From assembly GCA_963833125.1 (NCBI GenBank), contig CAWHWX010000001.1:345702-409701 (forward strand): a DNA stretch of 64,000 nt. Direction: 5' to 3'. How positions within the stretch are numbered: position 1 is the first letter of the stretch; each line of letters opens with the position of its first letter. Positions 26,508 to 29,594 of this stretch are shown piece by piece. The notes beneath the pieces were generated by a model. The model did no database searches. It saw nothing but the letters and a program-made list of their open reading frames with translations, and was not told the DNA's origin. The translations under genes and the position numbers were made by a program. This stretch comes from Candidatus Bathyarchaeota archaeon (lineage in GTDB: Archaea > Thermoproteota > Bathyarchaeia > 40CM-2-53-6).

Positions 26508-27534
26508 TTGCAGGAACAGCCGATCGGATGGAGCAATGGGATAATAGTGAATACTGGCTCGTCGCGCCTTCTCTTCGATCCAACTTTAGGTAGGCGTTTA
26601 GGTGAGGATTGGAATGTTTTCATCACTCACGCACATTCAGACCATACCTATGGTTTTGGAACTTCCGCGAGAAAACATTCCACGCCGGAGACCTTGCGCA
26701 TCTACGAATCACTTTCAAAACGTACAGTCAAGAACGATCAGACCATAAAGATCGGCGAGAGAATGCGATTTGATGATACTGAAGTCAAGGTCCTCGATGC
26801 TGGTCACATGCTTGGTTCCTGCCAGTTCCAGCTCATCGCTCCCGAATTTACTGCGCTCTATACAGGCGACATCAACTGCGTCGATACACTGACTACCAAG
26901 GCGGCAGATGCTGAGCCATGCGATTTTCTGATTATAGAAGCTACGTATGGTCATCCGTCATATGTGTTCCCAAAAAGAGACACCATATACGCCGACATCA
27001 TTCGATGGACAATGACGGAGATAAATGACGACAAGTTACCAACTTTCCAAGTTTACTCATCAGGTAAACCGCAAGACATCGTCCGCCTCTTCAACGTCTA
27101 CACCAAAATCCCAGTCGTATGCGCACCCGGTATAGCGGCAGCAAACCTTGTCCACAATGAAAACGGCGTCCAACTCGAATACCTAGATTCTTCGACCCCT
27201 GACGGAAAGCACGCGCTGAAATCGAGGGGATGCATCTACGTTACGACTACTCGAGGAAATCAGGTGCCCCATAATGCTTCAAGAGCAGTTGCTACAGGTT
27301 GGGCTCTACGAGAGGCTTTTCGCAGTTTTACAGCCTTTCCCCTGAGTAGCCACGCTGACTATCAATCAGCTCATGCAATTTATCGCGGCCGTCAACCCGA
27401 AAGCGGTGTTCATCTTCACAGGATACATAGATCTGTTGTCGGCCCAGATAGAAAGGAAGCTAGGCATCAAAGCTGGGCCACTGCCTGTACTCGCGCAGAC
27501 GAAGTTAGCCGACTTTACGCGAAAGGCTACTTGA
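26508..27534 (+). CDS. Metallo-beta-lactamase / beta-CASP nuclease (frameshift near 27365)
   Basis: THAHSDH, AGHMLGS, YTGD, IEATYG, LSSHAD. Confidence 0.85.
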
Positions 27535-27706
27535 AAGTCACATACATGAAGAGACTTACGGCAACAAGGCCGATTGCTCCCATAATTACAACCTCGGGCC
27601 TTACCTTTACTCCCGGAGTCTCCTCTTCAAAGAACCGAAGTAAGCCGGCACTGGCAGCGGGCATTGGCGATTCTCGTTTGCGTCTTTTCTCACGTGCGGT
27701 TGACAT
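27527..27706 (-). CDS. secG: Preprotein translocase subunit Sec61beta/SecG
   Basis: MSTAREKRRKRESPMPAASAGLLRFFEEETPGVKVRPEVVIMGAIGLVAVSLFMYVTFK*; 59 aa, missed by the ORF track. Confidence 0.88.
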   Translation of the reverse strand: MSTAREKRRKRESPMPAASAGLLRFFEEETPGVKVRPEVVIMGAIGLVAVSLFMYVTFK

Positions 27707-27783
27707 TATTTACTAGGTCCCTGCTGGTTGGTTTTGGACGACGCTCAATTAAACTTTCATTTAGTGCATTAGGAGACGGATTG

Positions 27784-29144
27784 TTATCGGATTTTGATGT
27801 ATTCGTATGCTTTCCTTGCGCTTTCGAAGCAATAGTGGACGTCCTGGAAATTCTTTCGCAATTCTGCAACGTCCTGTTTGACTTTCTTCGGGTCTTCCTT
27901 GTTGATTACTACACTCTTGATGAGCCTTGCGATCTCACTCATTTCATTCTTCCCCATCCCTATTCGGGTTATTTCCGAGGTTCCTATGCGTATCCCGCCT
28001 GGATTCTGATAATGCCGCCCGGCTTTAATGTCACCAGGAAGTAGCTGACGATTCACGATGATGTTAGCCGCTTCGAGTGCCCTCTCCGCATCTCCTCCAA
28101 GGGTGTACTTGGTAACGTCTACGGCGATTTGATGTGACTCCGTGAAGCCCTTACTCTCCCCAAGAAGAGAGAACCCCGTCTCATGTAATGCCTGCCCCAG
28201 AGCTTTCGGCGTTATCAATAACTTGCACAACGTACTGCTTCCCGAACTCCAACATCTCCGCAAAAGCAACGGCCTTCCCAGCCAAATTATGCAGGTGGTG
28301 GTTACTCGTATTCGATGGGAATGTCGCTTTCTTAATTTGATCACCATATTTATCGAACGACAACACAGCGCCCCCCTGAGGCCCGAAGAGCGTCTTATGA
28401 GTACTCAAACATACGGCGTCAACTCCTTCTCTCAGCGGATCCTGAAAACGCCCACCCGCAATGAGACCACCGACGTGAGCGGCGTCGTATGCTATTTTGG
28501 CGCCAACCGAATGCAAAGCGTCCGCAAGTTCGCGGATTGGTTGTGGGAATAGGAATAGGCTGCAACCAAACATCGCGAGTTTCGGCGGCTTATGCTCTTC
28601 CTCAGCCATCTTCCGTATTTTCTCCTTCGTCTTGTCAACGTCAATATTCATCTCCTCTTTGTCGAACGCGAAGTACTCCACGTCAAGGCCGTGTACGGAA
28701 CCGGCGGTTCCGTTGAACTCCTTTCTTCCCGTAGAAATGTGCCCACCGTTCGGGATGGCCATGGCTAACATGCGGTCACCTGGATTTGTGAAAGTAGTGT
28801 AGACGACTAGGTTGGCACAAACTCCAGAGACGGGTCGAACGTCAACGAATTCGGCTTTGAACAGATCCTTTGCTAGGTCGATGCAGATTCGTTCAACTTG
28901 ATCTATGTATACGCATCCGGCGTATACTCGTTCCCCGACCCATCCTTGCGTAGACTCGACAGGATGTCTAGGTCTATTCCGCGTAACGGTTGCCGAAGTC
29001 GGAAACGATTGCTTCGCGCACCGCCGGGCTGGGAACGTTTTCGGATGCGATCAATGGTATCGATTCGGAGAACCACTTATGGTGCTGCTCCAGTAGTTGG
29101 AGCACCTTGTTGCGGGACTCCTTTGGCTGTGGTAACTCAAACAC
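27784..29144 (-). CDS. glyA: Serine hydroxymethyltransferase, interrupted by a 31-nt insertion (28946-28976) and a 1-nt frameshift near 28205
   Basis: LIASEN, GNRYAE|GWVGERVYAGC, GGHIS, YDAAHVGGLIAG, STHKTLFGPQGG, GIRIGT. Confidence 0.93.
28946..28976 (-). other. Candidate 31-nt BHB-like mRNA intron in glyA
   Basis: TAGACCTAGACATCCTGTCGAGTCTACGCAA; its removal restores YAE-GWVGER in frame; forms a hairpin with a relaxed BHB. Confidence 0.6.
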
Positions 29145-29231
29145 CCCACCCAAGGTGGTTCCCTAGGTCTCTAAATGCCTTTTGCCCTGAGAGTCCTCTG
29201 TAACGAAGTCTCTTGGAGTTGCTAGGTCCCA

Positions 29232-29594
29232 TTAACCTATGCTTAGGTTCCAGAAGTAACCTAGAATGAGGCTGACAATTAGAATCAGCATCACAGAACC
29301 TGTAACGAAAACGAACTTGCGGTCATGATTCGCGGCAAAAACTAGAATGGAAAGGAAAACGCGGGTAATTGGGGTCGCGATCAAAAGTATTGTTCCAACC
29401 ATCAGAATTGCTGAAGCACGCATGGCAATCAGTTGCTGAACAAAATCATTCAGGCTAGTGTATCTTACCAACGTCGCCTGCATTGGATTGGGGTTCTGTA
29501 AGAGGAATAGGATTAATCCGAATATGTAAACGACGGAGCTTGAAATCATTCCTACAACCAAAACGACGTACATTGCCCTATTCAAGTCAACCAT
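29232..29594 (-). CDS. DUF1634-like membrane protein
   Basis: GTILLIATPITRV motif; adjacent to the TauE gene. Confidence 0.75.
   Translation of the reverse strand: MVDLNRAMYVVLVVGMISSSVVYIFGLILFLLQNPNPMQATLVRYTSLNDFVQQLIAMRASAILMVGTILLIATPITRVFLSILVFAANHDRKFVFVTGSVMLILIVSLILGYFWNLSIG

Follow-up and report, generated by a model that had tools for sequence, protein, structure and literature searches.

The stretch of DNA analysed here, referred to as the window, comprises 64,000 nucleotides (nt) of a Candidatus Bathyarchaeota archaeon, namely C1:345702-409701 of an assembly denoted G000 that totals 3.07 Mb in 39 contigs, with a completeness of 87.8% and a contamination of 7%. On its minus strand, from about 29153 to 27784, lies glyA, the gene for serine hydroxymethyltransferase (SHMT), which is spread over three reading frames. 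Read on that strand, the gene runs ...AAC CGT TAC GCG GAA, then TAGACCTAGACATCCTGTCGAGTCTACGCAA, then GGA TGG GTC GGG GAA CGA GTA TAC; the first frame ends in ...SDFGNRYAE and is immediately followed by TAG, and the second frame starts with GWVGERVYAGCVYIDQVE. This insert of 31 nt, splitting RYAE from GW and carrying an in-frame TAG, reads exactly as given in an earlier annotation of the letters alone (the sequence-only reading), which had proposed it as a bulge-helix-bulge (BHB) intron of the mRNA. The 31 nt are very probably a BHB intron of the relaxed HBh' class, lying in the coding sequence of the only canonical SHMT gene of G000 and removed by splicing.

The insert falls between two parts of one protein. 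Exon 1, an open reading frame (ORF) of 59 amino acids (aa), corresponds to positions 4-50 of the Pfam SHMT profile (PF00464) at 23.1 bits, which is under the 27-bit cut-off because the fragment is short, and the exon-2 frame corresponds to positions 51-310 at 141.7 bits, so that the insert lies between adjacent positions of the profile. With the insert disregarded the profile match is contiguous, placing the gene in the SHMT family, with the C-terminal part in the third frame after a 1-nt insertion; exon 1 can also be aligned to the solved SHMT chains 4uqv and 4bhd, and this alignment ends exactly at ...RYAE. The second break in glyA is due to a single additional C, at about 28208-28209, when compared with the closest relative, G016. 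Comparison of G000 with G016 gave pN/pS values of 0.007/0.537 for exon 2 (245 codons) and 0.054/0.301 for exon 1 (55 codons), which indicate that both exons are under purifying selection, each in its own frame.

The same site was then read in other genomes. When 40 relatives were searched with the exon-2 protein, the junction could be read in 29 orthologous loci; in 16 of these (G000 included) an insert 25-34 nt long lies precisely at the border of the Glu and Gly codons, and the other 13 are uninterrupted. Within the genus of G000 (g1), the insert is present in 12 of the 14 other genomes having an ortholog and missing from G015 and G019. A covariance model built from the 16 insert sequences gave matches in 20 out of 105 species genomes from the order, with exactly one match in each matching genome (13/23 in genus g1, including G000, 1/10 in g15, 3/4 in g9 and 3/3 in g10); the insert of G000 scores 51.1 bits and is the sole match in that genome. 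The alignment of relatives that the sequence-only reading had proposed as a check has thus yielded a 25-34-nt insert at the same codon junction in 19 further genomes. Among 116 Bathyarchaeia genomes sampled across the class outside the order, the model found no match. In a sample of 100 near-complete genomes of the phylum, orthologs from outside the order are open over at least 417 aa, bar one cut by a contig end, an open frame being only a proxy for an absent insert. Among 80 loci from named genomes the insert is confined to Bathyarchaeia close to G000, and the readable glyA loci of Nitrososphaeria, Caldarchaeum and Asgard archaea are continuous and have no insert. Metagenome contigs (L312-L346), scanned with a permitted gap of 0-30 nt, added 13 further variants of the intron, 29-30 nt long, together with 22 glyA genes that are uninterrupted.

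All of these inserts share one anatomy. Exon 1 ends in GCGG-AA, and the intron consists of one bulge nucleotide, a hairpin of about 9-10 base pairs (bp), a 4-nt helix strand and two further nucleotides; the helix strand at its 3' end is CCGU, or else CCGC, ACGC, CGGU or CUGC, and exon 2 starts with the G that follows. Across the family this gives a central helix of 4 bp with a 3-nt bulge on each strand, with all four pairs formed (G.U allowed) in 18 of 20 genomes. In the alignment of 16 sequences, 96.7% of the central-helix cells are paired, and for the whole fold 91.1% of 192 cells are paired, as opposed to 32-45% when the partners are slid by 1-3 columns. Both-sided changes occur in 10 of 13 pairs, a covariation score reached by none of 500 shuffles, and in the intron hairpin (h') all nine pairs show compensatory changes across relatives. 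Most genomes have GCGG/CCGU as the central helix, genus g9 has GCCG/CGGU and G070 has GCAG/CUGC, so that a synonymous change of the Ala codon is paired with a change in the intron. The BHB fold is the minimum free energy structure in 13 of the 16 sequences. The motif lies above chance because the same site, with variable sequence, conserved geometry and compensatory changes, recurs in 19 more genomes. For G000 itself, the features described by the sequence-only reading (a hairpin of AGAC/GTCT with an inner stem, a GCGG/ACGC helix of three pairs plus G.A, and the bulges AAU and AAG) are all present. The strict hBHBh' form was not found in glyA, where the segments that would form a helix h between exons 1 and 2, CGCUAC and GAUGGG, offer one pair; since h' is present and the exon-side helix is absent, the motif fits only the relaxed HBh' class.

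BHB introns are cut symmetrically, following the second nucleotide of each bulge. Cuts placed by this rule yield the junction GAA/GGN defined by protein homology, with the frame restored, in 20/20 genomes; the in-frame GAA-GGA claimed earlier for G000 was reproduced among them. With lengths of 30 or 33 nt, six introns cause no frame shift by themselves, yet an in-frame stop lies within five intron codons in all 20 genomes (directly after the last exon-1 codon in 15), so that every intron, even those of 30 or 33 nt, needs removal if enzyme is to be produced.

Evidence for the spliced form comes from RNA data of one peat metatranscriptome (X1), available as contigs that contain a fraction of 0.05 of the sampled words, which was compared with window positions 27700-29300. 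A contig of 244 nt, with a depth of 6.6, can be aligned to 28893-28947, where it differs from G000 at four positions, and beyond 28947 its upstream part, on the sense strand, reads ...SDFGNRYAE, that is, exon 1 joined directly to exon 2. Both 30-nt flanks of this junction are identical to the locus L008 of G010, at 1260-1289 and 1377-1406; they are spaced by 87 nt in the G010 genome and by 55 nt in the contig, and the difference is the 32-nt intron of G010. Over these 55 nt there are likewise exactly four differences between the exons of G010 and those of G000, matching the alignment of the contig. The closest DNA relatives of the contig (G010, G006 and metagenome contig L343) are all intron-bearing. 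Over the initial 120 nt of exon 2, the intron-less genes of the 22 metagenome contigs show only 63-78% identity to G010, and neither 30-mer occurs in any of these 22 contigs. A second X1 contig covers 28025-28196 with one difference and ends short of the frameshift at about 28208. The search for a spliced junction in metatranscriptome reads, which had been suggested as a check, therefore found an exon-exon contig, for the relative G010 rather than for G000. As evidence for splicing it is good but not conclusive, being a single assembled contig from one library, of a relative and without a matched DNA control.

The genome also encodes the machinery that such an intron would need. G000 has two proteins of the tRNA_int_endo (EndA) family, of 185 and 190 aa, encoded on contigs C34 and C14 and both consisting of an N-terminal and a C-terminal, catalytic-type domain (PF02778 and PF01974). 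The first is most similar to the PDB chains 3p1z_B, 3ajv_B, 2cv8_A and 2zyz_B, which we take to be catalytic subunits of crenarchaeal enzymes, three of them two-subunit (heterotetrameric); the second is more distant. RtcB is found on C16 at 574 bits. An endonuclease of the two-subunit type, with a range on relaxed motifs that is predicted, and the ligase are thus both encoded in this genome. When G000 was run through ARAGORN, only 4 uninterrupted tRNA genes were called, and the intron mode added 27 calls with introns of up to 1218 nt, many of them implausible; the tRNA genes of G000 are probably heavily interrupted or otherwise difficult to detect.

A second coding-sequence insert of the same kind occurs in the cbf5 gene of G000, where 19 nt split the Asp codon of GGTL-D-PKVTG (C19:108179-108197, plus strand; locus L035:1483-1501); this gene has an additional 1-nt frameshift further on, near C19:108684. 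Across the order, 28 of 30 cbf5 loci carry an insert of 17-21 nt, which folds as a mini-BHB with 99.4% of cells paired and compensatory changes in 5 of 7 pairs. Canonical cuts lie between letters 1 and 2 of the catalytic Asp codon (G/AU), the position to which the crenarchaeal cbf5 intron has been assigned (PMC2738675; this and the other papers identified by PMC number were available in part). The available part of that paper, which is older than the Bathyarchaeia genomes, lists no cbf5 intron for Cenarchaeum, Nitrosopumilus or Korarchaeum, and no earlier report of a cbf5 intron in Bathyarchaeia was found in the literature searched. The presence of this intron in G000 and in 28/30 loci of the order means that the lineage tolerates coding-sequence introns of the BHB kind.

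Together these observations suggest how the gene would be expressed. In the pre-mRNA, the GCGG of exon 1 would pair with the four helix bases nearest the 3' end of the intron while the rest folds as a hairpin, leaving two 3-nt bulges 4 bp apart; a two-subunit EndA (alpha/beta) would cut following the second nucleotide of each bulge, and RtcB would ligate GAA to GGA, restoring ...NRYAE-GWVGERVYAGC.... Translation of unspliced mRNA would stop within the first five intron codons, and active enzyme would depend on splicing. The proposal of the sequence-only reading that the glyA mRNA is cut by EndA and joined by RtcB is supported by the conserved position, the covariation, the restoration of the frame, the enzymes and the RNA contig; that EndA and RtcB are the acting enzymes, and that the slightly imperfect motif of G000 itself is cut, we infer.

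The following points weigh against this reading. In G000, in G016 and in two metagenome contigs (L314 and L321) the central helix, GCGG/ACGC, has only three Watson-Crick pairs and a G.A, and the exon-side outer helix is absent from the glyA motif. In a 49-nt context the BHB fold of G000 has -7.0 kcal/mol, as opposed to -12.1 kcal/mol for a competing fold between intron and exon 2; with less flanking sequence the optimum is a BHB-like fold, at -10.9 kcal/mol. Because of the extra C, glyA as assembled in G000 would be broken even after splicing. The X1 contigs leave the intron junction of G000 itself uncovered, along with most of the gene (gaps in this data set are uninformative), RNA libraries can contain DNA, and the spliced form is represented by one contig for a relative. 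Finally, the junction letters of the intron-bearing genes, GCGGAA/GGATGGGT, are also found in the DNA of the 22 uninterrupted metagenome glyA genes, so that the junction string by itself is not diagnostic, and GCGGAA as a mark of intron-bearing genes was rejected on these contigs; in intron-less genes this exon helix strand either survives the loss of an intron or predates its gain. As to the G.A pair, the four distinct sequences with the ACGC variant form one clade in the SHMT tree, and the persistence of the variant, with the gene under strong purifying selection between G000 and G016, points to its being functional.

Of the explanations that compete with this reading, one accepts splicing and adds that removal of the intron is rate-limiting and regulated, making it a switch on one-carbon metabolism (the sequence-only reading had raised a regulatory switch), which is speculation and on balance improbable. 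It draws on circumstantial points, namely that unspliced mRNA is dead in 20/20 genomes through its in-frame stop, that the motif of G000 is sub-optimal, and that a role as negative regulator has been suggested for the cbf5 intron in the available part of one paper (PMC2738675); however, the intron is dispensable, being absent in close relatives and in most of the order, and the pattern fits equally well with a harmless element that is removed efficiently and persists neutrally.

It is very unlikely that the insert is retained, with glyA a decaying pseudogene or yielding a two-piece product, an SHMT-like paralog being the functional enzyme, and the X1 contig stemming from a strain lacking the intron or from DNA in the RNA library. 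Just one other SHMT-like gene is present in G000, an ORF of 438 aa at C32:50537-51853 (plus strand; L002:1063-2379), 45% identical over the query, and it offers this explanation a candidate enzyme; intron-less alleles exist within the same genus (G015, G019) and in metagenomes, and contigs of an RNA library do not prove transcription. At the SHMT motif RYAEG.PG.R.Y.G, however, the C32 paralog reads ...CRYGNAYAPTLSTDWEAFAKVRWYEG, which is longer and different, and lacking RYAEG.PG.R it is, to judge from this motif, unlikely to replace glyA; an intact glyA paralog elsewhere, which the sequence-only reading had named as grounds for refutation, is thus a poor description of this gene. Paralogs like that on C32 are present in many relatives. 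Retention also has to contend with pN/pS ratios of 0.013 for exon 2 and 0.18 for exon 1 between G000 and G016, with a BHB geometry kept by compensatory changes across three families, and with flanks of the X1 contig that are identical to an intron-bearing species and occur in none of the 22 intron-less contigs.

Translational hopping, by which ribosomes would bypass the insert in unspliced RNA, is a still more remote prospect. In the bypass of phage T4 gene 60, matching take-off and landing codons lie at either side of the gap. The stop directly after the last exon-1 codon in 15 of 20 genomes, with a hairpin adjacent to it, superficially resembles a take-off site, but the landing codon is never GAA in 20/20 (the inserts end in CAA, CAG, UAG, UAU, UUU, CAC, UUG or CAU), hopping has no need of a conserved pairing between exon 1 and the 3' end of the intron with two 3-nt bulges 4 bp apart, and the X1 RNA contig is without the insert. 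A sequencing, assembly or template-switch artefact, for which the error-rich assembly of G000 might speak (192 of 296 split pairs found in the scan described below differ by 1-2 nt, and glyA itself has an extra C), can be set aside almost entirely, as independent genomes of 19 other species and 13 metagenome contigs have an insert at the same junction with differing sequence and length and with compensatory pairing, a result that also answers the chimera named by the sequence-only reading as a possible refutation.

Splicing of a BHB intron being the preferred reading, the history of the intron can be followed on an SHMT tree. The first tree was made without G025 and G027, both uninterrupted; a second one leaves out three metagenome contigs that offer under 150 usable residues, along with five outgroups out of seven. 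The intron-bearing genes fall into three groups (g1, g10 and g9) on an unresolved backbone. The intron-less G015, G019 and L340 form a well-supported sister or nested clade of the g1 group, the intron-bearing G070 lies inside the mostly intron-less g15 clade, and 17 of the 22 intron-less metagenome genes group with genus g15. At least four changes of intron presence are needed on the tree, and well-supported branches force two or three. Stem and length of the introns are unrelated between the three clades (25 nt in g9, 31-32 nt in g10, 29-34 nt in g1 and g15). Both ends of the G070 intron resemble those of the g1 introns, an indication of common descent in this family with later losses; the g9 and g10 introns have in common only what the pairing with the exon dictates. 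Both one old gain followed by several losses and repeated gains at one site are compatible with this record.

A bolder interpretation, which is possible but doubtful, holds that BHB introns are mobile among protein genes in this order of Bathyarchaeia and re-insert at specific sites. It is prompted by the unrelated introns at the same codon junction in three clades and by G070 in an intron-less clade. With the Glu next to the glyA intron taken as catalytic, the glyA and cbf5 introns both lie at or beside the codon of a catalytic residue. Re-insertion might proceed, for example, by reversal of the endonuclease and ligase reactions followed by reverse transcription, and an inserted copy would survive only where precise removal is enforced. 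If true, this would provide a tractable natural system for the gain of introns by protein genes.

Two kinds of scan were run for further introns in G000. Structure-first scans, in which BHB-like motifs were sought that link two frames, open or coding-like, gave thousands of candidates with no excess of canonical cuts (for example, with h' of at least 8, 235 canonical cuts compared with 227-272 at cuts shifted by one base), and are therefore blind to a few true introns. In the homology-first scan, 2609 ORF proteins of the single-contig reference G134 (1.65 Mb) were compared with G000 by tblastn, which gave 296 split pairs of high-scoring segments, 192 of them differing by 1-2 nt (112 by +1). 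Such 1-2-nt breaks are most likely indel errors of the assembly, since relatives read through in the checked cases; what the sequence-only reading said of the other frame breaks, namely that they are indels of one base, is borne out by the second break in glyA and by this genome-wide scan. Extra sequence of at least 10 nt was found at 30 distinct sites, glyA and cbf5 among them. Three others, having the best BHB-like motifs, were compared with relatives or known motifs, and the remaining 25 were judged from the listing alone, where their motifs are weak, their identity is low or the site is simply a boundary between genes. In the Lhr-like helicase gene at C1:132634-132676, G000 has one extra T relative to G019 and G016, and most relatives are open over about 950 aa. 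In a gamma-glutamyltranspeptidase-like gene (C18:142408-142436) the candidate intron would remove ...FVDFRERAP, which we take to be a conserved motif of the family, and the break is accounted for by a 1-nt shift. The third, a GSAM-like aminotransferase gene on C4 near 5300, was rejected as G016 is uninterrupted there. The scan for other BHB inserts in conserved genes that had been recommended thus returned only glyA and cbf5, and no coding-sequence intron beyond these two was found in G000 by a homology-first scan that is blind to introns shared with the reference, to stop-free in-frame introns and to genes without a homolog in the reference.

The features of the glyA locus are collected in Table 1. 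Upstream of glyA, an ORF of 402 aa on the plus strand (window 26508-27716) starts like a metallo-beta-lactamase fold (HxHxDH); its final third appears by eye to be out of frame, possibly through another 1-nt frameshift. Rfam and ARAGORN gave no match on the 64-kb window.

Table 1. Features of the glyA locus in window coordinates.
Feature	Position	Strand	Evidence
glyA exon 1, N-terminal 57-59 codons to ...NRYAE, ending at A28977; start codon approximate	28977..29153	minus	Pfam, PDB alignment, pN/pS
Predicted 31-nt BHB (HBh'-type) intron UAGACCUAGACAUCCUGUCGAGUCUACGCAA, from 28976 (first T) to 28946 (last A); first codon an in-frame UAG	28946..28976	minus	covariance model, homologous inserts
Central-helix 5' strand GCGG (exon 1: Ala codon and first G of the Glu codon)	28979..28982	minus	
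Bulge 1 (A A / U), predicted 5' cut following the second nucleotide	28976..28978	minus	junction set by protein homology
Intron hairpin h': outer stem AGAC...GUCU, inner stem, 5-nt loop	28952..28975	minus	folding
Central-helix 3' strand ACGC, final part of the intron	28948..28951	minus	pairs with GCGG at 28979-28982
Bulge 2 (A A / G), predicted 3' cut following the second nucleotide; exon 2 begins with G28945	28945..28947	minus	
glyA exon 2, GWVGERVYAGC... to the stop, with the extra C at about 28208-28209	27784..28945	minus	

Watanabe et al. reportedly described a BHB intron in the cbf5 pre-mRNA of Crenarchaeota in 2002, and the intron was also treated by Yokobori et al. in 2009 (PMC2738675). 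The glyA intron is like it in being a short BHB intron within a coding sequence, a presumed substrate of the tRNA-splicing machinery, and placed at a catalytically important motif; it also resembles it in a patchy distribution, in inferred gains and losses and in hosts with a two-subunit endonuclease (PMC2738675). It differs in that the enzyme there is one of RNA modification while SHMT is a metabolic enzyme, in that the hosts there are hyperthermophilic Desulfurococcales and Sulfolobales while glyA introns are found in a single Bathyarchaeia order, in metagenomes of soil and peat type, and in that the glyA motif is of the relaxed HBh' class, with no exon-exon outer helix. The mechanism would be the same as for cbf5, in a new gene and lineage.

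Another example of an archaeal mRNA intron has been described in Haloferax volcanii, where HVO_1309 carries a 46-nt BHB intron in its 5' untranslated region, identified by circular RNA sequencing (circRNA-seq) and in vitro cleavage; besides it, the available part of this paper from 2020 names cbf5 as the only mRNA intron reported (PMC7714728). In both HVO_1309 and glyA an mRNA would be the substrate of the archaeal splicing endonuclease, but in HVO_1309 the intron lies in an untranslated leader, the reading frame is uninterrupted and cleavage has been shown, whereas glyA is interrupted in frame and known from sequence and an RNA contig. The element itself is familiar from the non-canonical tRNA introns of Thermoproteota, whose relaxed HBh' motifs are cut by (alpha-beta)2 or epsilon2 EndA (PMC5829648). 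These share with glyA the 4-bp helix, the 3-nt bulge and one flanking helix, as well as the presumed type of enzyme, there being two EndA paralogs here; the difference is that in glyA the host RNA is an mRNA and one strand of the central helix consists of codons, so that protein sequence and splice signal constrain the same bases.

Splicing of metazoan XBP1 mRNA likewise ends in RtcB-type ligation. In the unconventional splicing of HAC1 and XBP1 mRNA in eukaryotes, IRE1 and RtcB are the enzymes involved (PMC13149111). The likeness to glyA lies in a protein-only, spliceosome-independent removal of a short, frame-changing mRNA intron with RtcB-type ligation, and the difference in the endonuclease (IRE1), in other stem-loop signals and in a regulation by stress that is established there. 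In the available parts of two more recent papers, pre-mRNA splicing is cited only via the cbf5 work (PMC12397907, from 2025), and cbf5 is unmentioned and no archaeal mRNA intron is named (PMC13149111, a review from 2026). No report of an intron in glyA or SHMT, or of mRNA introns in Bathyarchaeota, was found in the literature, with most subscription journals and supplements lying outside the coverage. Most likely, glyA is only the second archaeal protein-coding sequence known with a BHB intron, and the expectation of the sequence-only reading that BHB introns of protein genes would extend to a metabolic gene finds support in glyA as a new host besides cbf5.

Since 2002, BHB introns in archaeal coding sequences have rested on cbf5 alone. 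A second host gene means that the phenomenon is no peculiarity of cbf5, and it brings in a core metabolic enzyme and a mesophilic uncultured lineage. Gene-calling programs will break such genes up or cut them short, affecting estimates of completeness and metabolic reconstructions for Bathyarchaeia. The glyA intron is also a rare case in which codons and a splice signal occupy the same bases, with covariation visible between a synonymous site and an intron, and its patchy presence in close relatives provides natural pairs with and without the intron for the study of intron gain, loss, cost or regulatory use.

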